A DNA stretch of 64,000 nucleotides, from the IMG/VR virus record IMGVR_UViG_3300045988_138376; one strand, given 5' to 3'. The position numbers were made by a program, and so were the translations under genes. Shown piece by piece: positions 7,461-62,911 of the stretch (position 1 is its first letter; the number at the start of each line of letters is the position of its first letter). The stretch is from a virus. The notes below the pieces were generated by a model. It was not told the DNA's origin, did no database searches, and worked only from the letters and a program-made list of their open reading frames with translations.

Positions 7461-9559
7461 CTTTCATCTCCACTTGTAAATGGCAATCCATTATCCTTAT
7501 TTTGATTAATATCTCTCGTTTCTTGATTATGCCATGATTCGGATTGAGAATATGTAAAAGAATAAGGTTTAGGGGATTCTTCCCATCCATAATGTATATC
7601 TTCATTTTCTTCATTTTTGAACCTTCGGCTTGGTATATCATAGTGCATTCCCACCAAATAATCTACTACACCATACATTCGGTTTTTAGCCACCTCTATT
7701 ACGTTTCCAAATCCAGTATATCCGGCAACCTTATCCTTCCCTAAAAACTCTCCTCCACGTTTAATGAAGTCATTATTAACTCGATGGATTATAAATACAT
7801 TGTCAACAGCATTTGTTAAATCGGCTGTTCCGCTAATTGAATCCTTTCTTAGAAATTCAACTTGTTTACGTGGATGGCAGACCAGAATTAAATGGATTTG
7901 ATTCTTTTTAGAAAACTCGCATATTTTCAAAATTAGCTCTTTTTGCTTATTGTTTTTATCTCCATCAAATAAATCAATATCAAGAGAAAACAAGTTATCA
8001 AGAATCAAAAGCTTTACGCCATTATCAACCATTTCTTTCATGTCGTTAAAAAGCTGCGCGAACTTAGATCCATACTCGTTATTATACAAAAAGAACTTCC
8101 CATCAAGCCAATTATCTATTTTTTCAGCAGCAGCAGGCAAAACATCATACTTTCCAGCGCCAGGTATTCGTTCAACTAAATTCCTACTGCCTGCGGCAAC
8201 CATTTGAATCCAAGTTTTTAGAATATCTGGACGTAATTCTCCGCTCCACAATGCAGCCTTATATCCCTGATTTACAACATTGAGAATTAATGTATTTAGC
8301 CATGATGATTTTCCACTGGAATTACTCCCAGACAAAATAGATACTTCTCCAAGATTTAACCCAACCATAGCCCTATCCAAGACATGGAAACCTGTTTTTA
8401 GACTTATGATTTCTGTCAGATTTATCTTTTTAATATCCTTCATGCTAAACCATTTCTTGCCTAATTCTTTTGTCTCCTCCTTAATTTTTATTTCTTTTTT
8501 TGGATGAGTTGGATAGTTATTATTCCCATATTGGATATTATTTCTTGGAGTAACATCATACGCATTAGGCTCGTATTTTAAGCGCAAATCCCTCCAAGTA
8601 TATTGGCTACATGAATTATGAAAACAAGTAAAACCTATGCCGTCTTTAGATACAAAAATAGCCGAATCAGGATGTTTATGCGAAGAATCAAATGGGCATT
8701 CGTCTAATATGATCTTTCTTGTTCCATCACCAAGCAATGTCTCTTTATGTACTTTTATTCCATGCTTACTGATAAAGTTATCAATATCAAATTGTTCCCT
8801 ATTACCGTTATTAAATCGAACTATTGGTTCTATTTTAGGAATATAATCAGCGAGTCTTTTGAATAAAGATATATCATTCTCTTTAATTTCTTGCGGTACG
8901 ACTAATATTTTGCTAATTCGATGTGGTCTATTAGGCGTATTGCCTCCCTTTCTCGAATACGTGCCATAGAGCTTTGTTATTCTCGCTGGATTAAATACCT
9001 TCACATCAACATCAACATGGTCATCAGTAAACTTGGAAGATAAGTACTTCAAAAAATCCCTGATGATAGTTGTATTTTCATCGGTATTATCCAAATCCAC
9101 CTTATACATCAAATGGTATCCATTACCAGATTCGCAAACAATTGGATAATTAAACCCGTTTGCTTTCAAAAAGGTTCTTGCTGCGTTTGCTGTCTTGCGA
9201 GAACATTCCTTCTCTTCATCAGTACTTGCTACATCCTTTACGCCACCTTCACGTATTGGATCAAAATCAATAAGCACCCAACGTCTTTTTTGAATATCAG
9301 CATCCTTAATCGCAGGTGCACCTTTCACCATAGTGTTAAACTGCGGCAGGCCATCTAAGGCGTTTTTTAGCTCGTTAAAGGTAAAATAGATGTTGTACCT
9401 ATCATCGAACCTTTGAATTGATTCTACGGCTTTATTTGCGTCTCTAAACACGCCTGAATAGATGTCATTCTTGTTTAGTGGATTAAAAAGTCGTATTTCG
9501 AATAATTCTCCATCATTTCTGAATAGAGTAAGGCTCTTTTTTATTTCTTCGTTATTCAT
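7448..9559 (-). CDS. bifunctional AEP-type primase(-polymerase) / DnaB-like (SF4, RecA-fold) helicase
   Basis: AEP motifs are VLIDFDP (DxD), SGNGYHL (sGxGxH) and NPARITKLYGT. A Zn ribbon reads CPFDSSHKH..CFHNSC. Walker A is GSNSSGKS and Walker B is LLILDNL. Confidence 0.8.
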   Translation of the reverse strand: MNNEEIKKSLTLFRNDGELFEIRLFNPLNKNDIYSGVFRDANKAVESIQRFDDRYNIYFTFNELKNALDGLPQFNTMVKGAPAIKDADIQKRRWVLIDFDPIREGGVKDVASTDEEKECSRKTANAARTFLKANGFNYPIVCESGNGYHLMYKVDLDNTDENTTIIRDFLKYLSSKFTDDHVDVDVKVFNPARITKLYGTYSRKGGNTPNRPHRISKILVVPQEIKENDISLFKRLADYIPKIEPIVRFNNGNREQFDIDNFISKHGIKVHKETLLGDGTRKIILDECPFDSSHKHPDSAIFVSKDGIGFTCFHNSCSQYTWRDLRLKYEPNAYDVTPRNNIQYGNNNYPTHPKKEIKIKEETKELGKKWFSMKDIKKINLTEIISLKTGFHVLDRAMVGLNLGEVSILSGSNSSGKSSWLNTLILNVVNQGYKAALWSGELRPDILKTWIQMVAAGSRNLVERIPGAGKYDVLPAAAEKIDNWLDGKFFLYNNEYGSKFAQLFNDMKEMVDNGVKLLILDNLFSLDIDLFDGDKNNKQKELILKICEFSKKNQIHLILVCHPRKQVEFLRKDSISGTADLTNAVDNVFIIHRVNNDFIKRGGEFLGKDKVAGYTGFGNVIEVAKNRMYGVVDYLVGMHYDIPSRRFKNEENEDIHYGWEESPKPYSFTYSQSESWHNQETRDINQNKDNGLPFTSGDESCPF

Positions 9560-12718: not shown

Positions 12719-13855
12719 TTAACAGAATGGGCATGTCATGGCAAGTTCAGAATCATATTCTGTGTTTTTTATTTTAATGGGAGTACTTTCTCCTGTAAAA
12801 CATAAACTCACCTTATCACACATAATAGAATTTACTACCATAGAAAGATAGCTTATACTAAATCTTTGAGTTATTGGAACTACTTCTCCATCAGAGTCAA
12901 AAGGTATCAATTCTTCTGTTTTTTTATTATAGTCAATGTTTTCGGCATAGATATAAATGCTGTTATCTCTAACACTTACATCACATACGCTGTTAATATT
13001 ATCCGAAAGCAAAGAAGTACGTCGTAAGGCAGAAATTAATGCTTTCTTATCAACATTGATACATGTCTTATCAGGAAGATTAATCAGTCTGTCAAATGGA
13101 GGAAGAGCTTTTTTCTCTAATTTTTGAATCAGAACCATCACATCTCCACAAACAAACATCATATTGTTTTCTGAATTTGTTATTTTAACATTCTTGTCCT
13201 TAATTGATTTTAAAGCAGATTCTAACCCATCAAAAGCAGTCTTGTCAATAGAAAGCGTACATTCTCCCTTATAATCAATATCTGTATATGTATCGTAGTA
13301 CATATTATGTCCCTCAGAAGCGTATACTTTGGCAGTACCTTCGGACAATACGATATGCACGCATTGTTTGTTTGGGAAAAATTCATCCTCCAACAAAAAG
13401 GGTTTGCTCTTTTCAATCCAATATAATAGCATATTTGCATCAAAAAGGAAAGATTCAGTAGTAGTATCTATTTTTAATACAGGAAACTCGCGAGCATCTT
13501 CAAGAGGAAATTTAATCGAACTATTCTCTGTCTTAATCTCAGCAATGCCTTTATATGAATATTTATCTATTTTTTCTTCTTCAATATTGATTTCAATTAA
13601 ATCATCATTGATCAAAGAAATATATTTTCTCAATTCTATAGAATCAATGCAAAACACAATATCTTCTTCCGAAGATTCTACTGGGCATTTTGCTTTAATA
13701 GCATTTTTACCATTATAAGACATGATCCAGCAATCATTGCCTCTTATTGTTATTTTAGCACATCCCAAAATAGGAAGAATTTTCTTGCTGCCTGCATAAC
13801 CACCTCCGACTATAAGTCCGGAATTTAAACTTTTTCTGTTAAATACGATTTTCAT
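12719..13855 (-). CDS. dnaN: DNA polymerase III beta sliding clamp homologue
   Basis: 378 aa, the typical clamp length. The N-terminus MKIVFNRKSLNSGL....KKILPILGCAKITIRGN follows the DnaN pattern. Confidence 0.7.
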   Translation of the reverse strand: MKIVFNRKSLNSGLIVGGGYAGSKKILPILGCAKITIRGNDCWIMSYNGKNAIKAKCPVESSEEDIVFCIDSIELRKYISLINDDLIEINIEEEKIDKYSYKGIAEIKTENSSIKFPLEDAREFPVLKIDTTTESFLFDANMLLYWIEKSKPFLLEDEFFPNKQCVHIVLSEGTAKVYASEGHNMYYDTYTDIDYKGECTLSIDKTAFDGLESALKSIKDKNVKITNSENNMMFVCGDVMVLIQKLEKKALPPFDRLINLPDKTCINVDKKALISALRRTSLLSDNINSVCDVSVRDNSIYIYAENIDYNKKTEELIPFDSDGEVVPITQRFSISYLSMVVNSIMCDKVSLCFTGESTPIKIKNTEYDSELAMTCPFC

Positions 13856-18941: not shown

Positions 18942-19907
18942 ATGGAAAAGAAATTTGAACTAACAGAAAAGTATGTAGTAAACGAGTTTGGAACAAAGTT
19001 GTACCAAATCAAATGTACGAAGACGTTCGAGTATGCAAAAGAAGGAGAACTTGGAGGATATATCGAAAAAGAAGAAAACTTAAGTCAAGAAGGTAATGCG
19101 TGGGTGTCCGACACTGCGCGGGTATCCGACGATGCGCGGGTGTACGGCAATGCGCAGGTATTCGGCGATGCGAATGTATCCGGCAATGCGCGGGTATTCG
19201 GCACTGCATGGGTGTACGGCGATGCGTGGGTGTTCGGCAATGCATGGGTGTACGACAATGCGCGGGTATCCGACACTGCGCGGGTATCCGACGATGCGCG
19301 GGTATCCGGCGATGCGTGGGTATCCGGCAATGCGCGGGTATCCGACGATGCGCAGGTGTTCGGCAATGCGCAGGTATTCGACACTGCGCGAGTGTTCGGC
19401 AATGCGAATGTATCCGGCACTGCGCGAGTGTCCGACACTGCGCGGGTATCCGACGATGCGTGGGTGTTCGGCACTGCGCGGGTGTTAGGCAATGCGTGGG
19501 TATCCGACGATGCGCAGGTGTTCGGCTATGCGAATGTATCCGGCAATGCGCGAGTGTCCGACACTGCGCGGGTATCCGACGATGCGCGGGTGTACGGCAA
19601 TGCGCGGGTATCCGACGATGCGCGAGTGTTCGGCACTGCGCAGGTGTACGGCTATGCGCAGGTGTCCGACACTGCGCGGGTATCCGACGATGCGCAGGTG
19701 TTCGGCACTGCGCGAGTGTTCGACAATGCGCGGGTGTTAGGCACTGCGCGAGTGTTCGGCAATGCGTGGGTGTCCGACAATGCGTGGGTGTCCGACAATG
19801 CGCAGGTATCCGACGATGCGCGAGTATCCGGCACTGCGCGAGTGTTCGACACTGCGCGAGTGTTCGGCAATGCGCGGGTATCCGGCAATGCGTGGGTGTG
19901 CAAATAA
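18942..19907 (+). CDS. hexapeptide-repeat (predicted beta-helix) protein: 50-aa N-terminal domain plus 45 tandem [GD][NDT]A[RWQN]V[SFY] units
   Basis: 321-aa ORF. The period of 6 aa / 18 nt is read directly. The pattern (V at position i, small residue at i+4) resembles left-handed beta-helix hexapeptide repeats. Confidence 0.8.
   Translation: MEKKFELTEKYVVNEFGTKLYQIKCTKTFEYAKEGELGGYIEKEENLSQEGNAWVSDTARVSDDARVYGNAQVFGDANVSGNARVFGTAWVYGDAWVFGNAWVYDNARVSDTARVSDDARVSGDAWVSGNARVSDDAQVFGNAQVFDTARVFGNANVSGTARVSDTARVSDDAWVFGTARVLGNAWVSDDAQVFGYANVSGNARVSDTARVSDDARVYGNARVSDDARVFGTAQVYGYAQVSDTARVSDDAQVFGTARVFDNARVLGTARVFGNAWVSDNAWVSDNAQVSDDARVSGTARVFDTARVFGNARVSGNAWVCK
19092..19901. repeat. 45 x 18-bp tandem array (consensus about GGCAATGCGCGGGTATCC), GC-rich island
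   Basis: 810 bp equals 45 units with no interruption. The array is stop-free in several frames on both strands, which generates the overlapping artefact ORFs in the track. Confidence 0.95.
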
Positions 19908-19945
19908 TAAGGTCAAGTTGTAATAACTGTATAAACAATAAATCC

Positions 19946-20689
19946 ATGAAAGCAATATATTTAAGGTGCTCAACCGATAAACAAGATTTTGCACAACAAT
20001 TTGAATGTATAAGACAATATTTGAAGCGGATAAATGAATCATGTGATTTATACACTGTACAGGAAAAAATATCCGGTACAGTCAAGCACACAAAAAGAAA
20101 GTTGCATGAGTTATTAGAATCATGTGATAAAGGTTCTGTTATTTATGTCTCAGAATTATCTCGTTTGGGTAGAAGTATGTCGGATCTCTTTCAAATTGTT
20201 GGTTATGCCGGAGAAAAAGATATAACATTGATTCAATGCAAAGACGGTACTGTCATAGAAAACAAATCTATAGGCGGAAAAGCCTTATTATTTGCCTTAT
20301 CTTTAGCGGCTGAAATCGAGGTTGAGAACATAAGACAAAGAACAAAAGCCGGGCTTGCTGCAAAAAAAGCAAGAAACGAAGCAATAGGCGGAACGGATGA
20401 TCTTTGGGGGAAAAACACAGGAGCAGACAGGGAAACGTCCCTAAATGAAATAAGAAACGAATCTGCGAACAAAAGAAAAGAGAATGCAAAAGCAAATGCA
20501 AATAACGCGTTCTTTTGGACTTTTATAAATCAATGGATAAAAGATAAAGGAGAGCCTAAAAACTGCGAAGAATGGCAGGATATAGCGCAAAAACTCAATG
20601 CTTTGGGGCAAAAGACAGCTACAGGAATGCAGTATAATAACATTCGCGCGGCTGCAATGTATCGTAAATTAAAAAAATTAATGAAATGA
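19946..20689 (+). CDS. small serine recombinase (resolvase/invertase family)
   Basis: The true start is the ATG at 19946 (MKAIYLRCSTDKQ, containing the catalytic Ser motif). Other motifs are VSELSRLGRS and EIEVENIRQRTKAGL. The product is 247 aa (248 codons including the stop) with a helical C-terminus. The track ORF 19100..20689 is extended artefactually through the repeat. Confidence 0.85.
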   Translation: MKAIYLRCSTDKQDFAQQFECIRQYLKRINESCDLYTVQEKISGTVKHTKRKLHELLESCDKGSVIYVSELSRLGRSMSDLFQIVGYAGEKDITLIQCKDGTVIENKSIGGKALLFALSLAAEIEVENIRQRTKAGLAAKKARNEAIGGTDDLWGKNTGADRETSLNEIRNESANKRKENAKANANNAFFWTFINQWIKDKGEPKNCEEWQDIAQKLNALGQKTATGMQYNNIRAAAMYRKLKKLMK

Positions 20690-29908: not shown

Positions 29909-31855
29909 ATGAAAGAGATTAAATTAAAAAAGTTAATTCTCCAAAATTGGAGAGGAAGAAATCTTGTTATTTCATTTAAATTAGATGGAGTAACCAACAT
30001 TATGGGACGTAATAAAAGTGGTAAAAGCTCTTTGAAAGATGCTTTTTTGTGGTTAATGACAGGATTTGATTCAAGCAACCGCGCAAATTACAATCTTTTT
30101 GACAACAACCATAATTATACAGCAGAAGATTCTCCTGTTGCATCTGTTGAAGCTCTTATTGCCATTGACGGGAATGAATTTTATTTTAAAAAAGAAGCAA
30201 AAAAAGGATGGATAAGAAGAAGAGGGAATAAGGAATATGAATTAAAAGGATCTGATGATTACGTCTGCTATTTTGACGGAATCGAGGTATCGGCCGGAGA
30301 ATACAAGAAGCGAGTTTCCGAATTATTGTGCGAGATAGAGCCATTAAAGGTTATGTTGAACACAGAATATTTTCTTAGTTTAGAATGGAAACAACAACGC
30401 GAAATGCTTTCTTTATTAGCTGGGGACATTCAGGAGAGTGATTTCAAATCCAATTACAGCGATTTATTTCTTCTTCTGAAAAAATACTCGATTGATGAAT
30501 TGAAGGCACAAGTCAAGACAAAGATAAGCCCTATGAAGCAGCAATTGAGTTCTTTCCCTTTAACAATACAAACTCTCGAACAACATTTGCCTGACATATC
30601 TAATGTTTGCGATTTAGAAAAAGAAATAGGGGAATTGAAAAGCAAAATCGTAGAGATAGATAATGCAATATTATCAGCTTCAAAAATGGCCGAACCTTAT
30701 ATTGAGATGAGGAACAAGCAATTACAAGAATTATCTAACATCAACTCGGAGATTAGAAATAAGAAAAGTGACTTTGAATATAATCAGAATGAAAAGCCGA
30801 ACAAAATCAGGAGACAAATACAGGAAGCAAAAAAAGAAAACGAATATATTCAAAGACAAAGGAATAAAACGCAAGAAGAAAGAAAGTCTAACGAAAATAA
30901 ATTAGCTCGATTAAAAGCAAAGGTAGAAGAGCACGATGAATATCGAAAAAAGCTATTAATTGAAAAAGACGAGTTGTTAAAAAGGGAATTTAACAGCGAA
31001 AAATGCTCTTTCTGCGGACAAGATCTTCCTGAATCAATGCTTGAAGCAAAAAGAAGAGATTTTTATGAAAAAAGAGAAAATGCAGTAAATGATATTATTA
31101 AAAAGGGAAAAGAAAACAATGAAAGGAAACAAGAAAAACTTGAAGAAATAGAACGTATAGAAGCTCTATTAGCTGATGATATTGAAAGTCCGATGTATAT
31201 TGACATAGAGGAATTGGAAAAGGGACTGCAAGAAGCGGAGCAAAAAACCTTAAAATTTGAAGATTCTGATGAATATAAAAAGCTAAAAGACAAAGCTGCT
31301 GCAATTCAAAATGGGTTAACAGAAGTCCCAGTAGTAGATAATACTAATCTGCTAAATATGAAAGAATCATTGACCCTGCAAATTGAAGAGAAAAGTCGTG
31401 CAATGGGACTTGTCGATGAAAGAGAAAGACAATTAAAAACGATTGCTTCTTTAAAAAGAGAAATGCGCGAAGTTGCCGATAGTTTGGCCGTGCAAGAGCA
31501 AATAGAGGCAAATATTAAATCCTATGAAGAAGAGCGCGCCCAAATTGTTTCTAACAAAGTAAATAAATATTTTAGTAGATGCAATATTTCTATGATGCAA
31601 CAGGACAAGTCTGGGCAATGGATACCGAGCTGCACAATAACTGTATCTGATGGCAGTTTGGTGAGCACCTGCAATGGAGCCGAAAATATTTTAGTAGGAC
31701 TTGACATTTCAAATGCTTTTGCTTCATATTATGACATTAGCTTGCCTGTATTTGTAGATGATGTAAATCTTATAAATAGCGATGTAAATGTCGAAACAAA
31801 TCATCAACTCATTAAATTAGTAGTTAGCGAAGACGAAAACATTATTGTTCGTTAA
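29909..31855 (+). CDS. Rad50/SbcC-like coiled-coil ATPase with central CxxC zinc hook
   Basis: Walker A is GRNKSGKSS. A long coiled coil has CSFC at its midpoint (nt 31004-31015, aa 366-369 of 648). The C-terminal Walker B is LPVFVDDV. Confidence 0.75.
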   Translation: MKEIKLKKLILQNWRGRNLVISFKLDGVTNIMGRNKSGKSSLKDAFLWLMTGFDSSNRANYNLFDNNHNYTAEDSPVASVEALIAIDGNEFYFKKEAKKGWIRRRGNKEYELKGSDDYVCYFDGIEVSAGEYKKRVSELLCEIEPLKVMLNTEYFLSLEWKQQREMLSLLAGDIQESDFKSNYSDLFLLLKKYSIDELKAQVKTKISPMKQQLSSFPLTIQTLEQHLPDISNVCDLEKEIGELKSKIVEIDNAILSASKMAEPYIEMRNKQLQELSNINSEIRNKKSDFEYNQNEKPNKIRRQIQEAKKENEYIQRQRNKTQEERKSNENKLARLKAKVEEHDEYRKKLLIEKDELLKREFNSEKCSFCGQDLPESMLEAKRRDFYEKRENAVNDIIKKGKENNERKQEKLEEIERIEALLADDIESPMYIDIEELEKGLQEAEQKTLKFEDSDEYKKLKDKAAAIQNGLTEVPVVDNTNLLNMKESLTLQIEEKSRAMGLVDERERQLKTIASLKREMREVADSLAVQEQIEANIKSYEEERAQIVSNKVNKYFSRCNISMMQQDKSGQWIPSCTITVSDGSLVSTCNGAENILVGLDISNAFASYYDISLPVFVDDVNLINSDVNVETNHQLIKLVVSEDENIIVR

Positions 31856-53342: not shown

Positions 53343-53704
53343 TAGTCATATTCATTAATCCATTGTACACCCAAGTTTGATAGCTCTGATAGTTTAGGAT
53401 CGTCCCATTTCTTATATAACCCAATTAAAATATTATAGACTTCTTTCTTTGTATCATAACGCTGGCTCCCAATCGTTTTCGTAAATGCGCCATGCTGTTG
53501 AGTTGAACTCGCAGTATAATTAGGGGCTGTATAAATCACGAACAATAAATCAGCAAGACAAAGATCTTTTTGTTTTTCTGTCAAAGATTTATAATCTGTA
53601 ACGTCGATAACTTCTCTTTCTATTGCGATACGGGTTAAGACTGCCCTGTCAAAGACGAAGGCAGTCAAACCAGAAAGATATTCTATAACATCGAATTGCG
53701 TCAT
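53342..53704 (-). CDS. head-tail connector/adaptor protein (by position)
   Basis: 120-aa ORF directly downstream of the capsid gene. Confidence 0.45.
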   Translation of the reverse strand: MTQFDVIEYLSGLTAFVFDRAVLTRIAIEREVIDVTDYKSLTEKQKDLCLADLLFVIYTAPNYTASSTQQHGAFTKTIGSQRYDTKKEVYNILIGLYKKWDDPKLSELSNLGVQWINEYD

Positions 53705-54876
53705 GAGTTTGCAGATGTAGTATCAACAATAACGTGATATGGGAACTCGTTCAATGACGGAACGGCCGACATAATCAAATCGGTATGCCATTCTTTATAC
53801 ATTCCATTAGGTACAGTTGTATTTACCAATGTATAAATACCACCTTCCATCTGAGCGAATGATTTAGTAATGGAATTATTACCGTATTTTTCAAACATTA
53901 CTACGTCCAAAATATCAGTATACTGAATTTCCCCAGCAAATCCCGCAGGGCGTAGAACAGCAGCTTTCGAATCCCATCCATTAACGAACTTACCAGTCAT
54001 ATTATCCCAACTGATGTCCTTTTGTTTTTCAACAACAATCTCAATTGGAGACAAATCGGGATAATTAGCATAAACAACACTGTTGAAGATTTCCTCAGTA
54101 ACAGGCATTGAGTCCAAGAAAACCTTATCATTTAGCGTATAGTATTGTTTCACCAGCTCGCGAACTTCTTTGTTCTTCAAAACGACATCCATATACATCT
54201 TATACGGAATCTGCCATTTCATTGGGCCATTATAACCTTTTGTATCGCGGAAGTCAACCTCAATAGTACGCATTTGACTAAGTAGATTACAATCTGCGGC
54301 AGTCCAAACCTTAGCACCTGCTTTCTTGAAGTTTTCTGATGGGATTTCTGCTTTCTGCAAAGCGCCCTTCATTCCACGTCCAAAACTATAAGAACACTGA
54401 CCCTTTGAAATAAGCTGTGCGCCCAAATTAGTTAAGGTCTGGTCAGCAGCGTCGATCTGCATCTGAACATCGTCCATCCACTCGCTAATCAAGAAAGCGT
54501 CATTCCCGAATTGAGCAAAAAGACGTTCTTTGTATTCACGCTGCGGAGCAGTTTCTACAATACCGGGAGCAATAAAATCAGGTATAGTAGCAGAATACCA
54601 AGAAATTCCCTTGTAATCCAAAGGTACAGAATCGCCAAGAGGCGCACGCATATCCATCATTGGAGTAGCGGTTCTGTCTTTAGCCTGTACTGTAAAGGTT
54701 GCAGTACCATCAGCTGCTACGGGGGTAGCATTGCTGGCTTTCGTAAATTGGGTTTTCCACCATCCGTAATTTGTGCGAAGCAAACCCGATTCGTCAATCA
54801 AAGAGCGCAAAAAACGCACATCAGAATCAGTCCACAAACGAGCATATCTATTATTATTAAAATCAAACTTTGGCAT
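53701..54876 (-). CDS. major capsid protein, lambda gpE-like
   Basis: 391 aa. The C-terminal LIMSAVPSLNEFPYHVIVD parallels the lambda gpE tail MIQSAPLMLLADPDEFVSV, from memory. The gene order scaffold / decoration-like / capsid supports the call. Confidence 0.7.
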   Translation of the reverse strand: MPKFDFNNNRYARLWTDSDVRFLRSLIDESGLLRTNYGWWKTQFTKASNATPVAADGTATFTVQAKDRTATPMMDMRAPLGDSVPLDYKGISWYSATIPDFIAPGIVETAPQREYKERLFAQFGNDAFLISEWMDDVQMQIDAADQTLTNLGAQLISKGQCSYSFGRGMKGALQKAEIPSENFKKAGAKVWTAADCNLLSQMRTIEVDFRDTKGYNGPMKWQIPYKMYMDVVLKNKEVRELVKQYYTLNDKVFLDSMPVTEEIFNSVVYANYPDLSPIEIVVEKQKDISWDNMTGKFVNGWDSKAAVLRPAGFAGEIQYTDILDVVMFEKYGNNSITKSFAQMEGGIYTLVNTTVPNGMYKEWHTDLIMSAVPSLNEFPYHVIVDTTSANS

Positions 54877-54893
54877 TTTCTATTTCCTTTCTT

Positions 54894-55616
54894 TTAAAGT
54901 TCAAACCATCCGGTTACTAATGATTTATTTCTCGCGTCAAGTACAGATTTAGGCATTGGGGACATCCGATCAATATAAGCAGTACCATGAAGCACCGGAG
55001 TCATAAAATATCTCGCTCCGTCAAAGTCTGAGTCGCCTGTAGAAGGTTCATAAAGAAAATCATAATCCGCAGGACACATTGCATTCGGATTTGTAACCAT
55101 CGGTTTTTTGCTTTCTCCGGCTTCGGCAGCTTCAACAAGGACATCACCTGCCTTTAACGCAGTCAATGTTGCAGAAAGAGTAAGTTTCCATACGTCTTTA
55201 TTTGTATCAACTGTTGCCTCAACTTTTGTTACAGTTACAGCAGTACCAGTACCATCAAGAGTGGCGGGGGCTTTCATAATAGTATCACCCACAAAAGGAA
55301 TGTGCTTATAACCATCTCTTACTATATAAATTTCGGTATCAGTACCATTGGTTGTATTTTTAGCGACAACATAAGTCTTCAAGATATAACCTGTAGCACC
55401 CTTTTCACCGTCCTTATAGCGATATTCAATCAAATCGCCTGCATACATTTTGGCTGTTCCCTTAAACGGATTCATAATTTTACATCCGAAAGTAGGGAAT
55501 ACAAGTTCATTCTTGTTGCCTTGCAGCTTAACAAAAACGTATCTTGCGCCACCAATTTCACCTCTTCGTTGAAGAAGAGTCTTTCCTAAAAAGACACCTG
55601 CATCGGTAGAATACAT
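54894..55616 (-). CDS. capsid-associated protein (decoration-like, by position)
   Basis: 240-aa ORF between the scaffold and the major capsid genes. Confidence 0.4.
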   Translation of the reverse strand: MYSTDAGVFLGKTLLQRRGEIGGARYVFVKLQGNKNELVFPTFGCKIMNPFKGTAKMYAGDLIEYRYKDGEKGATGYILKTYVVAKNTTNGTDTEIYIVRDGYKHIPFVGDTIMKAPATLDGTGTAVTVTKVEATVDTNKDVWKLTLSATLTALKAGDVLVEAAEAGESKKPMVTNPNAMCPADYDFLYEPSTGDSDFDGARYFMTPVLHGTAYIDRMSPMPKSVLDARNKSLVTGWFEL

Positions 55617-55632
55617 ATTTTCTCTTTTTTTT

Positions 55633-56265
55633 TTAATTTAAAACTTCTTTTTTACGTTCTCTCATTTTCTTAATATCATCCCACGTATCGGTTGCGGCTG
55701 CACTTGGGGTTTCCAAAGATTGCGGGGACATTGAAGTCGTGAAATTAGCCTGAGATTGATTGTAAATTTTCACATAAGAGTCAAGTTTTGCGTCTACGTC
55801 GAATTCTTCTGTGATATTAATCTCTTGAATGAAATCATTAATCCATGAATCGTTTTTAACGCCTTTAGTTTTTAATTTGCCTTTCAAATCTTGTTTCTTC
55901 TGAGAAATAACTTTCTCTCTCTTTTCAGCTTGCAATTCCTGTTCCAACTGTGCGAGTCTTTTTTCAAGTTCGCTTGTTCCTTCCGCAGGTTTCTGTGTAG
56001 TCTGCTGTGTGGCAGGTGATGTAGTTTGAGACTTGTAAGACTGCACGAAATCCGAATAATCTTTTTCCATGTTGCCATTTGCGGTTTTGAATAACGGCAA
56101 TGCTTTTGACATAAAATCAGTCAATTCGGTTTCTTCTGTTGCTAATAATGGGGTTAGGGTTTCTAACATCTCATTAATACTTCTCTCTGTTAAACGTAGG
56201 GTTTTCCCACCTTCTGTCAGAGCACCTTTGAGGTTTTCAAAGGCTTGCTGTTTGGTAAATTTCAT
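55633..56265 (-). CDS. putative scaffolding protein
   Basis: The start is set at the ATG at 56265 (MKFTKQQAF); the track ORF uses an upstream GTG. The protein is helical and charged (ELEKRLAQLEQELQAEKREK) and sits at the head of the morphogenesis operon. Confidence 0.5.
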   Translation of the reverse strand: MKFTKQQAFENLKGALTEGGKTLRLTERSINEMLETLTPLLATEETELTDFMSKALPLFKTANGNMEKDYSDFVQSYKSQTTSPATQQTTQKPAEGTSELEKRLAQLEQELQAEKREKVISQKKQDLKGKLKTKGVKNDSWINDFIQEINITEEFDVDAKLDSYVKIYNQSQANFTTSMSPQSLETPSAAATDTWDDIKKMRERKKEVLN

Positions 56266-56395
56266 ACTTCGTGATATTTTAATTTGCATACAAATTAAAG
56301 CTATATATTCAACAATACAGATAAATATAGGGCTAAATCTTATCACTGGTGATAATATTTATTCATTAGTCCAAAATATTCGCAAATTTCTATAG

Positions 56396-56403
56396 TATTT
56401 TTG
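56396..56403 (+). promoter_or_regulatory. -7 promoter box TATTTTTG abutting the terminase start codons
   Basis: The TAnnTTTG box ends 1 nt before the ATG at 56405 and 7 nt before the ATG at 56411. Confidence 0.45.
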
Positions 56404-56404
56404 C

Positions 56405-59023
56405 ATGTATATGGAAATTATAGACAAAGATAAGGAATCAAAGACCAAAATAATCAAGCCACAACCGGGCTTTCAAGAAAAGTTTGTGTGCTCGAATGTG
56501 GATGTAGTGTTCGGTGGCGGAATTTTATCGTGTGGAAAGGCTCAACCGCTTCATAGTAAGATACTTACGCCTAATGGGTGGACTACTATGGGTGCTTTGA
56601 ATATAGGTGACGAGATTATAGGTCTTGACGGGAAGCCCCAAAAAATTATGAATATATTCGAGAGAGGATTGCTTGACAATATAATGTTTACTTTTGAAGA
56701 TGGCACTTCGGTGGAATGCTGCCCCGAACATTTATGGACAGTATGGGATAAGTACAATAAGAAATACGTCACTTTAGAGGCACAACATGTTATTAATAAT
56801 GGCATTAAAAGATATGGATTACCTTTATTGCATCCAATAGAATTTAATGATAATAAAGATTTGCCTATAGATCCATATTTATTAGGAGTCCTATTAGGGG
56901 ATGGAATGTTAGGTCGAGATAAAGCATCCGTAATGTTAACTACTGATGAATATATAGTGAATAAGGTATCCAAAGAAAATAACATTACGGTCACAAGAGA
57001 TAAATCCAAGAAAAATCCATCATATAGAATATTAGGAAGCAAATTAAGGGAGTCTCTTAGAAATATGGGATTATTTGGAAAGTGTTCACACGAAAAATTC
57101 ATCCCAAATGAATATTTGTTTTCAACAATAGATAATAGGTTAAAATTATTGCAGGGACTTTTCGATACTGATGGATATAATGACAAGGTCGCAAGTAGAA
57201 TAGAATATTGCACAACCTCGAAAAAATTAGCAGAAGATGTATTGTTTCTTGTAAAATCATTAGGAGGAAAGGCTAAGGTAATAACAAAGATTGGGTCTTA
57301 TAAAAAAGATAATGAAAGGATAATATGCAAAAAAGCCTGGCGTTTACTATGTAGATTTGAGAATCCCAACGACATGTTCACATTAGAACGTAAAAGAAAT
57401 GGGAAGATTTCAAAGAGGGGATTCAACATAGGTATAACAAAAGTGGAAGCAAAAGGCAAAGAAATAATGAGATGTATATTGGTATCAAATAAAGACCATT
57501 TATATGTTACCGATGGCTTAAATCTTACACATAATACTTTTGCCGCCATCTTATCAGTCGCAGAGCCAAGTTTAGACCCTTCTTTCCGCGCATGTTTTAC
57601 TCGTAGGACATTTGGTGAGTTGAATATGGGTGGAGGACTTGTTGACGACTTTGAATCTTCTTATGGCAATGGAGCACAAATCAGAAAAACAAATCCTCCA
57701 AGAGTAACATTTCCATCGGGGTCTTTTGTTGAAATGCGCCAAATCAATGATGAAAACATCAAAAAGATAACGGAGCAATGGAAAGGTGCGCAGTTTGACC
57801 TTATATATATGGACGAGTTGACTTCTTATCAATTTTCTACCTTCAAATACCTTCTGACCAGAAATAGAGGTAAAGGTTCTTGGACAGGTAAGTTTAGAGG
57901 CACTACGAACCCGAAGAAAGATTCTTGGATTAGAAAATTCCTTGATTGGTATATTAGTCCAGAAGGTCAGATTATCCCTGAGCGAGATGGCGTAGTTAGA
58001 TATTTCTATATTGCCGGAGATACCATAGACGATGTTATTTGGGGAGATACCAAAAAAGAAGTATACCAGAAATGTAAATTGGACATTGACAAGAAGATAA
58101 AAGCTGTAGGAGGAACGATTTCTTATGAAAACTTCATCAAGTCTTTTACATTTTATTTAGGTAGAATGTCCGAAAACAAAGCCATTCTCGATGGCAACAT
58201 GGACTACGTAGGTTCTGTTGCTGCATCAGGAGGTAGAATGGCTCAACAATTATTGGAAGGTAACTGGAATGTTGACTTAGAGGATGAATCAGATGCTCCT
58301 ATTCCGTCCCATGTTGCAAGAAGCACATTTATGAATGATCCTCAAAGGAATGGAGACAGATGGATTACTTGCGACTTGGCAGACTTTGGAACGGATAACA
58401 TGGTTGCTTTGGCTTGGGATGGCTTTCATATCATGGATGCTCTAATCTTAGGCAAAACAACGCCTCGAATGAATGCAGATAAGCTGTCTCTATTTGCAGC
58501 AAAGTGGGATGTAGCAGATTGCCATATAATATATGATGGTATCAACGGACGCTACCTTTCTGATTATATCCCAGATGCGATTGCATTTCTTTCTTTTAAA
58601 GCACCAAGAGGGATGTATGGACGTTCCGCAAGAAGCTTAAAAGACGAATGTTATTTACGACTCAAATACATTATTAATAATAGGTATTTATCCTGGGAAG
58701 AAGAAGTCCTACAAAGAAGATATACGCATAATAAGATGAAAGATGAAATCACTATTGGCGTTGAATTTGTAGAAGAATGTACTGTTGTTCGGTTCAAAAC
58801 AGAAGCAAGCGGGAAACATAGATTGGCCACAAAGAAAGAGATGAATCAAATGTTGGGAAAGGGACGTTCTATGGACTTATTAGACCCATGCGCTATGCGG
58901 ATGTATCCTGTTTTGGAATATCAATATGGCGATGAACTTATTGAGACAGCAGTCGATTTTGAGGAAAGAGAGAAGCAATATATTCCCAAAGACAATATAT
59001 ATAGAGATGATTTTTGGGCTTAA
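56405..59023 (+). CDS. terminase large subunit (terL): terminase large subunit interrupted by an intein
   Basis: The exteins rejoin to give Walker A GILSCGK|T. Walker B is DLIYMDELTS. The C-terminal nuclease-size domain is present. The exteins total 540 aa. Confidence 0.85.
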   Translation: MYMEIIDKDKESKTKIIKPQPGFQEKFVCSNVDVVFGGGILSCGKAQPLHSKILTPNGWTTMGALNIGDEIIGLDGKPQKIMNIFERGLLDNIMFTFEDGTSVECCPEHLWTVWDKYNKKYVTLEAQHVINNGIKRYGLPLLHPIEFNDNKDLPIDPYLLGVLLGDGMLGRDKASVMLTTDEYIVNKVSKENNITVTRDKSKKNPSYRILGSKLRESLRNMGLFGKCSHEKFIPNEYLFSTIDNRLKLLQGLFDTDGYNDKVASRIEYCTTSKKLAEDVLFLVKSLGGKAKVITKIGSYKKDNERIICKKAWRLLCRFENPNDMFTLERKRNGKISKRGFNIGITKVEAKGKEIMRCILVSNKDHLYVTDGLNLTHNTFAAILSVAEPSLDPSFRACFTRRTFGELNMGGGLVDDFESSYGNGAQIRKTNPPRVTFPSGSFVEMRQINDENIKKITEQWKGAQFDLIYMDELTSYQFSTFKYLLTRNRGKGSWTGKFRGTTNPKKDSWIRKFLDWYISPEGQIIPERDGVVRYFYIAGDTIDDVIWGDTKKEVYQKCKLDIDKKIKAVGGTISYENFIKSFTFYLGRMSENKAILDGNMDYVGSVAASGGRMAQQLLEGNWNVDLEDESDAPIPSHVARSTFMNDPQRNGDRWITCDLADFGTDNMVALAWDGFHIMDALILGKTTPRMNADKLSLFAAKWDVADCHIIYDGINGRYLSDYIPDAIAFLSFKAPRGMYGRSARSLKDECYLRLKYIINNRYLSWEEEVLQRRYTHNKMKDEITIGVEFVEECTVVRFKTEASGKHRLATKKEMNQMLGKGRSMDLLDPCAMRMYPVLEYQYGDELIETAVDFEEREKQYIPKDNIYRDDFWA
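56540..57535 (+). mobile_element. 332-aa intein with LAGLIDADG homing endonuclease; class-3-type signature (Ala1, Trp66, Cys312, Thr330, His-Asn end, Thr+1)
   Basis: Block A is AQPLHSKILTPNGW. Block B is CCPEHLW. The LAGLIDADG motifs are LLGVLLGDG and LLQGLFDTDGY. Block F is MRCILVSNKDHLYV. Block G is GLNLTHN followed by T. Confidence 0.8.
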
Positions 59024-59075
59024 TTCATTGTAATTCAATTATTTTTATTAACTTTGTATCTTTAAAAGAAATAAA

Positions 59076-59633
59076 ATGGATGCCAACGACTTTAAAAAAA
59101 TAACTACCGACGCTAAAAACTTGGGGCATGATGTCTCCATGCAGGATATTGCATACGTGTTTCTCTGCGAAAGTTATGAAAACGCAGAGATTGCATATAA
59201 AGTGCTATTCGGGAAAGAGTCCATAGATGCGGAGGTGAATAAATATAAGAAATCAAAGAAGATTGTTTTTTTAACAGATTATATAAAAAGCAATTATACT
59301 AAACCTTCTAAGAAGGCAGAAGTTGAATTTTCGACAGAAGAAGATATGGATCTTTCTTTTGAGGAAAATAAGAGCAAGATGATCTCTCTTTTAAATAAGA
59401 TTGACGATTTGGTTACTTCTGGCGATATGTCTGCGAAAGATGCTGTTAAATTAGAGGCTGAAATTAGAACAAAACTGAATGATAAATTCTCTGTTGACGA
59501 TCAATCGGAGCAAAGTAATATTATCGTCGTTGAGCCGAAATTCAATCTTATTTGTCCGCATACTAATAGAGAGTGCTATGTAAATAGCAAAGAGCAAGTG
59601 ATGAAAAGATATAATCTAATCGAAAAGGAATAA
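59076..59633 (+). CDS. hypothetical protein (possible small terminase or packaging accessory; position atypical)
   Basis: 185-aa ORF between terL and the portal gene. Confidence 0.4.
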   Translation: MDANDFKKITTDAKNLGHDVSMQDIAYVFLCESYENAEIAYKVLFGKESIDAEVNKYKKSKKIVFLTDYIKSNYTKPSKKAEVEFSTEEDMDLSFEENKSKMISLLNKIDDLVTSGDMSAKDAVKLEAEIRTKLNDKFSVDDQSEQSNIIVVEPKFNLICPHTNRECYVNSKEQVMKRYNLIEKE

Positions 59634-59634
59634 A

Positions 59635-61152
59635 ATGGCAGAAGATAGAGTAAAAATAGATCATTTGATTGCTAATCCGCAATTGTTATTACAGAAAAAG
59701 CCTTTCTTTAGAGGATTGCAGATAAATGCGCGCTATAATCCTCAAAACGTAGACTTGAATCAAACCATACAAGTAGACACTCCGAGGGTGAAGAAAATGG
59801 TTATTTCACAAGATGAATATCTTCAAGAACTAAACCCATACTGCCACAAAGTCTTATTTGATGATAACGTGCCAAGTATTACAATGAAGCTTTCAAAGGA
59901 ACAAGGTGGAGGCTGGGCTACTATCGAATATAAAAAGATGGCAGTCTCTTTTCAAGAAAATATAAAGAATAAGCAAGTATTGCATCTTTGCGGGAATCCT
60001 CTGAATTTTACATTGATGGAAACAAACCCGACAACAAAACAGAGTGAAGACTTTATTACCTTTAAGCAGTATTGGGATTTAAGAAACCAAGATGGCATGA
60101 AAACAAAAATGGTTGATGCTCAAAAGTCGGTTGGAGATGCAGGACTTCTATATTATTTCGATAGGAAGGGAGAGATTAAATCGCGATTGTTATCCTACAT
60201 GGATGGATATGTTCTCTGCCCACATAATGATGATAATGGTGATAGACTATTAGAAAGCGTTTATTACAAAAAGGATGACATAGAATATATTGATTCTTAT
60301 GACGATAGATATATGTATCGTCACATGAATGATGGAAGTGGTGCGGATGAAAACGGCTGGAAATTAATATTCAAGAACGAACATGGATTTAGCGAAATCC
60401 CTCTGATTACTAAAAGAGGCAAAGTCGCTTGGGATGATGCTCAAAGCTCAATTGAAGCCTATGAAGTGTTATATAACATATTCTTAGTGATTCAGAAACG
60501 ACATGGATGGGGTATATTATACATCAAAGGGCGTTTTGATAATGATGGTAGAAAGATTGCTGGTTCTGTTATCTTGAATGACAGAAGTGATGATGCTAAT
60601 AGTGATGCTAAATTTCTTACTCCACCAACTCCGGAAGGAACTATTGAAACGCTGAATCTCTTAGAGGAAACAATACAGAAAGGATCAAAAACGACATTTA
60701 TTCTTCCGAAAGATATTAAAATGTCAGGAGATATTTCTGGTATTGCCATCATGCTTACTCAATCATTGGATATAGAGAATGCTCTTCAAGGCGTTATTGA
60801 ATGGCAGAATGTAGCTGATAAAATGTGTCGCTTATTCAAAGAGGGATTAGCTAAGGAATTGGTGAATAAAGACATTCAACCAACTGCTATTACAGACTTC
60901 AATAATATTAAAATTAATGCCAAATTCAAAGTATGGAGACCTCAATCTGATACAGACTTTGCACAAATGTTGGTTACTTTAAAATCTAATGGCTTATTGT
61001 CAGAGGAAAGCGGCATTGAATTAAGTCCAGTATCTTCTCCTGATGAAAAGGCAAGAAGACAGAAAGAAAAAGATTTAGAGAGGAATTTAGAGATAGAAAA
61101 AGAAACTATTATTAATAATTCTAACAATATTAAGGAGGAAGAAAATGTATAA
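59635..61152 (+). CDS. portal protein
   Basis: 505 aa. Its size and its position next to the terminase support the call. It has an acidic/Lys-rich C-terminal tail. Confidence 0.65.
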   Translation: MAEDRVKIDHLIANPQLLLQKKPFFRGLQINARYNPQNVDLNQTIQVDTPRVKKMVISQDEYLQELNPYCHKVLFDDNVPSITMKLSKEQGGGWATIEYKKMAVSFQENIKNKQVLHLCGNPLNFTLMETNPTTKQSEDFITFKQYWDLRNQDGMKTKMVDAQKSVGDAGLLYYFDRKGEIKSRLLSYMDGYVLCPHNDDNGDRLLESVYYKKDDIEYIDSYDDRYMYRHMNDGSGADENGWKLIFKNEHGFSEIPLITKRGKVAWDDAQSSIEAYEVLYNIFLVIQKRHGWGILYIKGRFDNDGRKIAGSVILNDRSDDANSDAKFLTPPTPEGTIETLNLLEETIQKGSKTTFILPKDIKMSGDISGIAIMLTQSLDIENALQGVIEWQNVADKMCRLFKEGLAKELVNKDIQPTAITDFNNIKINAKFKVWRPQSDTDFAQMLVTLKSNGLLSEESGIELSPVSSPDEKARRQKEKDLERNLEIEKETIINNSNNIKEEENV

Positions 61153-61438
61153 CGACGTAATAAAACAAGTTTTAGAGATTCCAGAAAGCCCCGACCATTT
61201 TACTTTGTCTGATCGGAATCCATTTTATGTATTTCCACAAAAGAAAGATGATACTGCACCCGATGTTTTTAATATTCAGGCTGAATGTTCTGCGGCAAGA
61301 GCAAGTAGTGCACCTGTGAATATTCCTTTGGTTTGTAATCAGTGGAATGTTATTCTTCTGCAAGGCATACATTTAACCGCAGATTTAAAAACCAAGTATA
61401 AGTTATTTGCAGGGGTAAACTATTCTTATGAGCCATGA
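61145..61438 (+). CDS. hypothetical protein
   Basis: 97-aa ORF that overlaps both neighbours. Confidence 0.5.
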   Translation: MYNDVIKQVLEIPESPDHFTLSDRNPFYVFPQKKDDTAPDVFNIQAECSAARASSAPVNIPLVCNQWNVILLQGIHLTADLKTKYKLFAGVNYSYEP

Positions 61439-62907
61439 AAATAGGAGTTGGAATAGGATTGTCGTATCCTAAATATGCTACATTTGTAAATAAGGGAGGG
61501 CAAACTTCTCCTTTTCACCCTTCCCTTGTGGATTATTGGAACTTTAAAGGTAAGAGCAATTTTGATAAAGATAGGAATATTATAAAAGGCGTTAAGGGTA
61601 ATATCTTTAACGCTTATAATTTCGGTTGGAGCTTAGGCAGTGGATATGGTAAATATACTATGAATTATTTAAATTATTTAAATAATTCTAAGAGCCCTGA
61701 AGACATTATAATAACAGATTCTTCAATAACCAGATTAAAAGGTGAAGGAAAAATATCCTTTTGGGTTACAGGGAATAAACTTCCCACAGGTATAACAGTT
61801 ATTCCTTCCTATAGAATCAATGTTACAGGAGAATGGGAAACTCCTCCGGAATTTACTTATTGTGATGGAGATAACGCATCTATATCACATACAATTACTT
61901 TAACTCACGGCATTAACATCATCCCTGAGATAACAATAAATGTAATAACATCAATATCATCCACTATATATGGTTTTAGTACTTTTCAAAATGGAGATGT
62001 CACTATTGAACAAATTCCAGAATATGAAGGGGCAATAGTTACAGATGGTGTTGACGATTATCTGAAACTTGATAAGGTAGGATATAAGATAGGAACTGTT
62101 ATAGTTAAATTTGTTCCTATTAAGTTTAATGTTGGTTGGAATACAGTTTTTGATAATAATAAATACGATAGCCCTAATAGGAATTTTTTAGGTTATTCTT
62201 CTACCATAGAAAATAGAGGTACTACTATGTTTGTTTCTAATTATGGCGATTATCTTGCATTATATCATAATACGCCTAAACAAGCTAATGACTCACTTTA
62301 TATAAGTAGCTCTTATACAGAATCGTTTACAGCTAAGGAGTTTTTTTCTATGGCTCTATATGATATTGCTATATATCAAGACGTTCTGACCGCTGAAGAA
62401 ATTCAGAAAGAAATCAACGTCATGGAATATGGTACTCCAAATCCAGTGTTCGCATTGAACTTTGATAATTTTGCCTATAAAGCCGTTGATTATCCTGAAT
62501 TTGCTACTGGCAAAGTTACAACAAAAAAAATTGTAATAGATAGTACAACTACACAAATGAATGGATTTATTGTGGCTGCTTATAATCCAGAATTAACAAC
62601 AGGAGATGCAATTGAACTACCATCTTATAAAGTAAAAGTCACAGGAATTGACGCATATGGTAATCTGGGCGATGGTTATTGGGCAGTTGCGTTAATGGGA
62701 ATGCCTATTAATGCGTCACAAGACCCTTGGGTTTATCTGTTTTACAAAGATGGAATTTATGATATACCAGCAATATCATTAAGTGAAAGTATCTATAATT
62801 TAGCAGTGATGTGTCAAATAATGGTTGACAAGCCTATTGAAATAGAAGTTCTTTATGATAGTAGTATAACTACTAATTTTCCGAGTGTTAAACAAATATT
62901 TCCTTAA
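61435..62907 (+). CDS. LamG/concanavalin-like lectin-domain protein (candidate receptor-binding or fibre protein)
   Basis: The segment VTDGVDDYLKLD...(beta-rich)...FSMALYDIAIYQDVLTAEEIQKEI matches the Laminin_G_3 pattern (DG.dDy..., G.i.d..iY...Ls.eEI). Confidence 0.6.
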   Translation: MKIGVGIGLSYPKYATFVNKGGQTSPFHPSLVDYWNFKGKSNFDKDRNIIKGVKGNIFNAYNFGWSLGSGYGKYTMNYLNYLNNSKSPEDIIITDSSITRLKGEGKISFWVTGNKLPTGITVIPSYRINVTGEWETPPEFTYCDGDNASISHTITLTHGINIIPEITINVITSISSTIYGFSTFQNGDVTIEQIPEYEGAIVTDGVDDYLKLDKVGYKIGTVIVKFVPIKFNVGWNTVFDNNKYDSPNRNFLGYSSTIENRGTTMFVSNYGDYLALYHNTPKQANDSLYISSSYTESFTAKEFFSMALYDIAIYQDVLTAEEIQKEINVMEYGTPNPVFALNFDNFAYKAVDYPEFATGKVTTKKIVIDSTTTQMNGFIVAAYNPELTTGDAIELPSYKVKVTGIDAYGNLGDGYWAVALMGMPINASQDPWVYLFYKDGIYDIPAISLSESIYNLAVMCQIMVDKPIEIEVLYDSSITTNFPSVKQIFP

Positions 62908-62911
62908 GATT

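Follow-up and report, generated by a model that had tools for sequence, protein, structure and literature searches.

The 64,000-nt stretch of viral DNA analysed here (the window; IMG/VR record IMGVR_UViG_3300045988_138376, from a genome of perhaps ~80 kb) contains a large terminase gene, terL, at 56405..59023 on the plus strand, stop codon included. Its product is an 872-residue precursor in which 332 residues stand between the lysine and the threonine of the Walker A motif. We consider it very likely that this insert, in the only large terminase of the window, is a bifunctional class 3-type intein. The alleles of closely related phages fix the insertion point and place the intein in a population where several intein lineages occupy the same few codons.

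The insert, its junction and the interrupted gene

Where does the insert begin and end? It occupies 56540..57535 on the plus strand: 996 nt, or 332 codons, in frame, corresponding to residues 46–377 of the 872-residue open reading frame (ORF). The N-extein (residues 1–45; 56405..56539, plus strand) ends with the first part of Walker A, GGGILSCGK (56513–56539). The C-extein (residues 378–872; 57536..59020, plus strand) begins with the threonine at +1 (ACT, 57536–57538). The insert itself starts with alanine, AQPLHSKILTPNGW. Its deletion in silico rejoins the Walker A motif as …DVVFGGGILSCGK-TFAAILSVAEP…, and the ligated junction peptide predicted after splicing is …VFGGGILSCGK/TFAAILSVAEPSLDPSFR. 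Thr+1 would thus double as the Walker A threonine and as the +1 splice nucleophile.

The junction can be read from natural alleles that are empty. The empty allele P0001 (538 residues; 98% amino acid and 94% nucleotide identity in the extein) has the unbroken loop GGGTLNCGKSFAAIL. The contig that encodes it, L002, runs parallel to the window on either side of the insert, at ~95% nucleotide identity and in the same order. The DNA alignment between the two ends at 56538 and restarts at 57539, local alignment resolving 1–3 nt, and the insertion point in L002 reads GGCACGTTAAACTGCGGAAAA|AGCTTTGCTGCC. In translation the empty allele is CGK-SFAAIL, the occupied allele CGK|A...HN|T. Since the empty allele keeps CGK, we conclude that the junction is Lys45|Ala46 and not Cys43.

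Cys43 lies three residues before this junction and might be taken for the Cys1 nucleophile of a class 1 intein (…GGGILS|CGKAQPL…). The probability of this reading is negligible: the mature protein of the empty allele retains CGK, and excision from Cys43 would remove the invariant G42–K43 of Walker A. Position −3 is Ala, Gly or Ser, not Cys, in many family members (…AGK|, …GGK|, …SGK|), and alignment to structures in the PDB sets residue 1 at Ala46. The insert also departs from class 1 in having Ala1 instead of Cys, Ser or Thr, and Cys instead of the usual Asp at position 4 of block F (F4). An initial annotation, made from the sequence, had given the extent of the insert and its effect on the Walker A motif exactly. 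It had also set a Cys43 junction beforehand as its own refutation, which the comparison with intein-less alleles excludes.

Is the insert built as an intein? In what follows its residues are counted from Ala1, that is, from residue 46 of the ORF. Block A, AQPLHSKILTPNG (56540..56578, plus strand), opens with the non-nucleophilic Ala1 (GCT, 56540–56542) and is in register with the inteins Msm DnaBi1 and M. chimaera (Mch) DnaB1. Block B, GTSVECCPEHLWTV (56702..56743, plus strand), holds Cys60–Cys61 at B6–B7, His64 (56729–56731) and Trp66 (56735–56737), and aligns with the HQW of 6bs8 and 6rix. Block F, IMRCILVSNKDHLYVT (57464..57511, plus strand), has Cys312 (57473–57475) at F4; this proposed branch-point nucleophile aligns with the catalytic Cys118 of Msm DnaBi1. 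Block G, GLNLTHN (57515..57535, plus strand), provides Thr330 (57527–57529), His331 and the terminal Asn332 (57533–57535), all conserved in the alignment of 63 inteins described below. The insert therefore carries the strings VECCPEHLW (His64, Trp66), IMRCILVSN (Cys312) and LNLTHN followed by Thr+1.

Between blocks B and F lies a LAGLIDADG homing-endonuclease domain (residues ~105–290; 56852..57409, plus strand). Its first motif, PYLLGVLLGDG (56873..56905, plus strand; LLGVLLGDG is residues 114–122), includes the putative catalytic Asp121 (56900–56902), which is Asp in 52/63 relatives. The second, LLQGLFDTDGY (residues 203–213; 57146..57178, plus strand), includes the putative catalytic Asp211 (57170–57172), kept in 60/63 relatives, while D209 is kept in 63/63. 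All residues named in the initial annotation, and both motifs, are present, and every residue number was correct.

Domain and structure searches assign the same two parts, at scores that chance could not produce. Pfam LAGLIDADG_3 matches the insert at E 5e-9, above the gathering cut-off, and Hom_end also matches; NCBIfam matches are limited to the endonuclease region of models for intein-containing DnaB, RecA, GyrA and similar proteins. With phmmer against PDB sequences the top matches are 6bs8/6own (E 5e-10) and 6rix/6riy (E 1.6e-9, 3.8e-9), then engineered and natural gp41-1 inteins. The alignments are in register from residue 3–4 in query and target alike; CPEHLW falls against AQHQW, MRCILV against VRCVEV and LTHN against PTHN. 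An AlphaFold2 model built from the 63-sequence alignment has a mean predicted local distance difference test (pLDDT) score of 95 and a predicted template-modelling score (pTM) of 0.92. With this model Foldseek returns the TliVMA intein, PI-SceI and PI-PfuI first among PDB entries, the intein-homing endonucleases scoring E 1e-18 to 1e-15. The template-modelling (TM) score to PI-SceI is 0.72–0.78 (query-normalised), and I-DmoI matches the endonuclease domain. The HINT part of the model matches 6bs8 and 6rix at TM ~0.8 (target-normalised), and also Prp8 inteins and hedgehog.

On the HINT side, then, we find blocks A, B, F and G, a terminal Asn, Thr at +1, a host motif restored by removal and an intein-less allele. 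On the endonuclease side there are Asp121 and Asp211, the Pfam match and a PI-SceI/I-DmoI-like fold, the features of a two-motif, monomeric LAGLIDADG enzyme. Three antisense ORFs within or overlapping the intein (56551–57213, 56525–56731 and 57298–57549) are mechanical ORFs of AT-rich DNA; we dismiss them because the forward frame has strong homology and is under purifying selection.

What is the evidence that the interrupted gene is terL? Once spliced in silico, the protein falls in PHROG 979 (‘terminase large subunit’) with E 1.7e-52, and Pfam Terminase_6N covers the C-extein at E 7e-7, above the cut-off. Across 40 intein-less homologues (extein alignment A3, P0001 numbering) the Walker A pattern G-x4-GK is unchanged (G36, G37, G42, K43), and the residue after GK is Ser or Thr in all members of the TerL family. 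A Walker B-like DLIYMDE of the ATPase domain was assigned by inspection at 57797..57817 (plus strand); in the same alignment D131 and E137 of Walker B are invariant and D136 nearly so. Searches of PDB sequences with the spliced extein matched no solved terminase, whether the query was the sequence alone or a profile of 40 sequences. Because these searches were empty, the Walker A and B assignment rests on motif conservation, Pfam and PHROG. An SPP1-type portal gene lies two genes downstream of terL (59635–61152). Walker A and B ATPase motifs, a TerL profile match and a nearby portal identify a Terminase_6-like large terminase.

Class assignment and predicted splicing chemistry

To which class does the intein belong? 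Tori et al. (PMC2807308) define class 3 as inteins that have no nucleophile at their N-terminus and in which Trp at B12, Cys at F4 and Thr at G5 co-vary (hereafter WCT). Ser or Thr, rarely Cys, usually follows at +1, and the insertion tends to lie in the P-loop of a helicase or terminase-type ATPase, an association and not part of the strict definition. The window intein has every one of these sequence features: Ala1, Trp66 at B12, Cys312 at F4, Thr330 at G5, and at +1 the Walker A Thr. The features are also those of its relatives. A search with the conceptually spliced TerL as query returned 1359 homologues, and among the top 120 cluster representatives 40 have a P-loop intein, making 41 with the window. 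Among these 41 TerL-family inteins only A, D, E, F, L and P occur as residue 1, and none has C, S or T there; His64, Trp66, the F4 Cys and the G5 Thr are kept in 41/41. A broader alignment of 63 sequences adds inteins of PhoH-like, RecA-like and other P-loop ATPases, 30–42% identical to the window intein. Here Cys312 and Thr330 are present in 63/63, His64, His331 and Asn332 each in 62/63, and Trp66 in 56/63; position −1 is Lys in 53, and +1 is Thr in 48 and Ser in 13. An intein-only search of a 5.8-billion-protein set missed near-identical TerL clusters that were seen with the extein query, a word-index limitation that makes it unusable for counts.

Two groups within this wider set stand apart. 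In six inteins (P0149, P0151, P0152, P0154, P0160, P0162) B12 reads His-Leu-Asn for His-Leu-Trp, an ‘NCT’ variant that keeps Cys at F4 and Thr at G5; the exteins of these six end …G[LT]GK|E. Five PhoH-like proteins (P0139, P0144, P0145, P0155, P0156) carry an intein 34–38% identical to that of the window after the Arg of …[FY][ML]RGR|, not after the P-loop Lys, and three of the five begin with Ser1. These PhoH-like insertions suggest extein or site switching within the lineage.

The initial annotation's class 3 assignment holds on all sequence features and on in-register homology to proven class 3 inteins of P-loops, and from these a splicing route can be predicted. By analogy with MP-Be DnaB, Msm DnaBi1 and Mch DnaB1, Cys312 would attack the Lys45–Ala46 peptide bond to give a branched thioester. 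The N-extein would then transfer to the hydroxyl of Thr+1, cyclisation of Asn332 would free the intein, and an O-to-N shift would rebuild GGGILSCGK-T and with it an ATPase competent for DNA packaging. The F4 Cys is obligatory in class 3 because it carries the branched thioester; in MP-Be DnaB it is C320 (PMC2807308). Msm DnaBi1, a class 3 intein in the P-loop of DnaB for which the Ser of that loop serves as +1 nucleophile, is splicing-dead as C118A (PMC6195587). The structures 6rix and 6riy are of the class 3 M. chimaera DnaB1 intein (PMC7664689).

Could Thr+1 attack the Lys45–Ala46 bond directly, as in a class 2-like intein of the KlbA type, leaving Cys312 a structural role? Ala1 is common to KlbA inteins, and in a model of MP-Be DnaB the Thr+1 is 5.2 Å from the scissile carbonyl, close to the 4.9 Å of the F4 Cys (PMC2807308). 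We think this very unlikely. KlbA inteins are without WCT and use Cys+1; since WCT is present here and Cys+1 is absent, the class 2 family does not fit. WCT is moreover maintained among relatives only ~30% identical to each other, the nearest characterised homologues require the F4 Cys, and it is unfavourable chemistry for the hydroxyl of a Thr to attack an amide directly.

In the precursor the Walker A motif is split, and packaging should therefore depend on splicing. In a comparable case an intein in the P-loop of P. horikoshii RadA abolishes its ATPase (as cited in PMC6195587). The class 3 intein is best read as a selfish passenger whose splicing is required for the viability of the phage.

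Alleles, selection and homing

How is the P-loop site occupied in related phages? The sister contigs L002–L005 were compared with window positions 53400–61650, over which they are collinear at ~95% nucleotide identity. At this average nucleotide identity they count as one phage species, in which the P-loop has four states. L002 is empty. L005 has the same 332-residue Ala1 intein as the window. L003 has a 353-residue Phe1 intein at the same Lys|Thr site. L004 has, within a terL gene at L004 3001–5682, a 353-residue Pro1 intein (L004:3127–4185) inserted three codons upstream, between Asn and Cys (GGGTLN|…|CGKT). The Pro1 intein of L004 has SHHW, CCINV, Cys at F4 and Thr at G5, ends T-R-N and is followed by Cys+1. 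Its relatives P0015, P0021, P0031, P0038, P0041, P0072 and P0090 end T-R-N, T-C-N or T-L-N, without the penultimate His. The lineage is in WCT register with the WCT-engineered gp41-1 (6riz); its combination of Pro1, Cys+1 and no penultimate His is rare in the original class 3 set. The three lineages, all class 3-type inteins, are only ~30% identical to each other. None of the top 120 cluster representatives carries two inteins in one P-loop. Occupied forms (35 + 104 + 163) outnumber empty ones (20) when cluster members are counted, these being distinct sequences and not abundances.

The codons before CGK (window 56519–56539) track the occupant. They are ATT TTA TCG (ILS) with the Ala1 intein and GTG CTT TCT (VLS) with the Phe1 intein; ACG TTA AAC (TLN) precedes CGK in both the Pro1-intein and the empty alleles. 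This co-variation may reflect co-conversion tracts, target-site selection, endonuclease specificity or immunity. Mini-inteins of 140–222 residues, which have lost LAGLIDADG and kept the splicing blocks intact, arose independently in all three lineages: P0013 and P0074 (Ala1), P0076, P0077, P0098, P0049 and P0053 (D/E/L/P1), and P0029, P0043 and P0083 (Pro1). Taken together, the allele states and the mini-inteins are the stages of a homing cycle as textbooks describe it, with lineages competing for target sites that overlap. The LAGLIDADG domain of the window intein would cut intein-less terL during co-infection, and repair would copy the intein in. Homing of this kind would explain the patchy distribution of the intein.

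Is the window intein still maintained? Against the 93%-identical allele of L005 its ratio of non-synonymous to synonymous substitution rates (dN/dS) is 0.127, with 0.15 in the splicing domain and 0.115 in the endonuclease. The extein, at 0.014–0.035 (0.014 against L005), is under strong constraint. The endonuclease looks intact, as the initial annotation had it, with both catalytic Asp residues, a PI-SceI-like fold in the model and a dN/dS of 0.115. The predicted site-specific cleavage of the intein-less allele has indirect support in the purifying selection on this domain and in the patchy presence of the intein among near-identical phages. With a GC content of 33.2%, compared with 34.6% in the window, the intein bears no compositional mark of having come recently from a foreign source.

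A decaying or splicing-dead intein, in a terL pseudogene of a defective phage or in a non-viable assembly variant, is by contrast extremely unlikely. Decay does occur in the family, as the endonuclease-less mini-inteins show. But the window frame is uninterrupted over 872 codons, the catalytic positions are all retained and dN/dS is low in intein (0.13) and extein alike. Several assemblies made independently, with contigs as long as 80 kb, also have this allele type (P0002–P0005). Judged by these sequence data, the class 3-type intein is real and probably active.

Might the intein instead serve the phage? Msm DnaBi1 is reversibly trapped by a Cys48–Cys118 disulfide under oxidative stress (PMC6195587). 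By analogy, thiol or redox chemistry at Cys312, with Cys60/Cys61 or the extein Cys43, might gate maturation of the terminase and so packaging, as a conditional switch. Cys60–Cys61 (window 56717–56722, B6–B7) directly precede P-E-H-L-W, beside the catalytic centre, and B7 is Cys in 22/63 relatives. B7 is the usual position of the TxxH Thr, near the N-scissile bond, and a Cys there could pair with Cys312 as Cys48 does in Msm DnaBi1. B7 is on the other hand Gly in 30/63 relatives, so Cys is not required, and the empty alleles and three interchangeable lineages fit selfish homing without benefit to the host. We regard such a switch as distinctly unlikely. A wider proposal, that gut Bacteroidales-type phages are a large unannotated reservoir of class 3 inteins competing for TerL P-loop codons and that terminase maturation, in the phage of an anaerobe, is also thiol- or redox-sensitive through Cys60/61 and Cys312, is as a whole unlikely. 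Its first component includes the P-loop polymorphism, which is observed; its regulatory component is speculation.

What weighs against a bifunctional class 3-type intein in the one terminase of this phage? Five points do. That the intein splices, forms a thioester on Cys312 and cuts DNA is in each case a prediction. The Pfam model Hint_2 matches the N-terminus of the insert at only E 0.07, below its cut-off; because the Pfam HINT models match weakly, we base the HINT assignment on homology to PDB entries and on the fold of the model. WCT grafted onto gp41-1, a class 1 intein, gave no working class 3 intein (PMC7664689). The triplet alone is therefore no guarantee, and we infer the mechanism from homology to proven members. 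Between the window and L005, dS is about equal in intein (0.26) and extein (0.28), which indicates vertical co-descent of these two alleles and not recent homing. Finally, the window has no second terL-like sequence and no second intein, but in a genome of this size a copy outside the window is conceivable.

Phage context and known systems

None of six ORFs neighbouring terL gave a match against PHROG, several of ten ORFs (a set partly overlapping the six) matched in a Pfam scan, and no tRNA genes were found. Between ~61.65 and 62.3 kb (61650–62335) the sister contigs cease to resemble the window. Window positions 62354–62908, at the end of the ORF 61435–62907, have 83% DNA identity to the crAss-like phage cr112_1 (MT774388, hypothetical protein). 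The pattern resembles a mosaic junction held in common with an unrelated group of gut phages.

Elsewhere the window encodes further P-loop proteins, a DnaB-like helicase (7448–9559, minus strand) and an SMC/AAA_23-type ATPase (29909–31855, plus strand), as well as a DNA polymerase III beta-clamp-like protein (12719–13855, minus strand). None of these three genes has an intein. A 406-residue ORF at 4915–6135 (minus strand) has HTH_OrfB_IS605, OrfB_IS605 and Cas12f1-like TNB domains (E 1e-21 to 1e-28) and is of the TnpB type of the IS200/IS605 family. A 529-residue ORF at 19100–20689 (plus strand) has, over residues 285–427, the catalytic domain of a Resolvase (serine recombinase) and may be an integrase or invertase; two other long ORFs, 18942–19907 (plus) and 19009–20091 (minus), overlap it.

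Which bacteria does this phage infect? The closest cultured relatives of its TerL infect Parabacteroides, Bacteroides and Phocaeicola. Among contigs of GTDB metagenome-assembled genomes that encode the TerL family, 6/9 are labelled Prevotella, Bacteroidales, Muribaculaceae or Rikenellaceae, although the binning of phages into such genomes is unreliable. Assignment to Bacteroidales-type bacteria is thus indirect.

How novel is such an intein? The initial annotation had described class 3 as a small group known mainly from actinobacteriophage and Deinococcus proteins. That description is not borne out: 1701 class 3 inteins were counted in the nr database in 2020, 82.5% of them with LAGLIDADG domains (PMC7891396), and 287 are in actinobacteriophages, almost all in TerL and Cas4 (bioRxiv 10.1101/2025.01.02.630785). 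Tori et al. (2010, PMC2807308) had already named phage terminase large subunits as hosts of class 3 inteins, mostly in ATPase P-loops. The claim to novelty is thus not supported. The present example adds gut Bacteroidales-type phages, a group sampled less than others, which is a modest extension of the range. Class 3 inteins of phage TerL P-loops were already known, and phages TaPaz and PF672P2 (below) have the same kind at the same site. Because class 3 LAGLIDADG inteins in phage P-loop ATPases and terminases have been well described since 2009, host range is the only new element. Our literature search found no paper combining class 3, inteins and Bacteroidetes.

Knowledge of intein chemistry or of terminases is unchanged by the window intein. 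Its value lies elsewhere. Gut Bacteroidales-type phages join the hosts of class 3 P-loop inteins, and the homing cycle and intein–intein exclusion could be studied in a natural population where an empty allele occurs beside three lineages in competition. There is also a consequence for annotation: terL has to be read as a precursor of N-extein, intein and C-extein. Otherwise it looks oversized or hypothetical, as in PF672P2, and distorts TerL phylogenies.

How does the window intein compare with characterised systems? The best sequence matches of solved structure are Msm DnaBi1 (6bs8/6own) and M. chimaera DnaB1 (6rix/6riy), both proven class 3. Like the window intein they follow a P-loop GK, begin with Ala1, have HxW, the F4 Cys and T-H-N, and use the P-loop hydroxyl residue as Ser/Thr+1. 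Unlike it, they are mini-inteins of ~139–145 residues without endonuclease, in a bacterial helicase, and identity is ~30–36% over blocks A and B only. The prototype MP-Be DnaB, of mycobacteriophage Bethlehem, is closer in form. It is phage-encoded, lacks an N-terminal nucleophile (Pro1 there), has WCT and Thr+1, and at 341 residues includes an endonuclease; it differs in its helicase extein and in Gln at −1, as compared by description only (PMC2807308). The two-domain architecture itself is that of PI-SceI, TliVMA and PI-PfuI (Foldseek E 1e-18 to 1e-11, TM up to 0.78, query-normalised). These, however, are class 1 inteins, with Cys1 and Asp at F4, in V-ATPase or RNR exteins and at 12–16% identity.

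Inteins in terminases are the nearer comparison. According to Kelley et al. (2016, PMC5050341), TerL is the commonest intein host in mycobacteriophage, and class 3 examples there splice and have active endonucleases; class 3 inteins with LAGLIDADG endonucleases abound in actinobacteriophage TerL. The same paper calls the Lys|Thr position, TerL1-a, the ‘classic’ P-loop insertion, places a second, adjacent P-loop site, TerL1-b, one residue away and, in the part available, names class 3 TerL sites c, d and e, with no class given for TerL1-a. Actinobacteriophage TerL proteins are Terminase_1 or PF04466 and have actinobacterial hosts, whereas the window TerL is Terminase_6-like. Novikova et al. reported 22 inteins in Terminase_6 prophage terminases, and TerL inteins have been reported in crAss-like gut phages with no class stated.

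Inteins of the same kind, at the same site as that of the window, occur in phages of two further groups. In gp49 of Acinetobacter phage TaPaz (MZ043613; PMC8228797) the sequence is GGAAGSGK|AQPLYSKVLT…NEHLW…AKCIYIDD…VVTHN|T, which shares the AQPL start with the window intein and is annotated as intein-containing. TaPaz differs in being a myovirus of a proteobacterium, and the published text speaks of ‘an intein domain’ with its class unassigned. The TerL proteins of the cultured Bacteroidales phages PF672P1 and PF672P2 of Parabacteroides (OP172819/OP172820) give the best coverage in the phage collection, 94% of the query at 30% identity. The PF672P2 gene (L001:2863–5703, PF672P2_00026) is annotated ‘hypothetical protein’ despite encoding TerL and a class 3-type intein. 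Its intein is divergent in sequence and lies at the same Lys|Thr, GGGK|ALII…EDHLW…CRCIKV…VVTHN|T.

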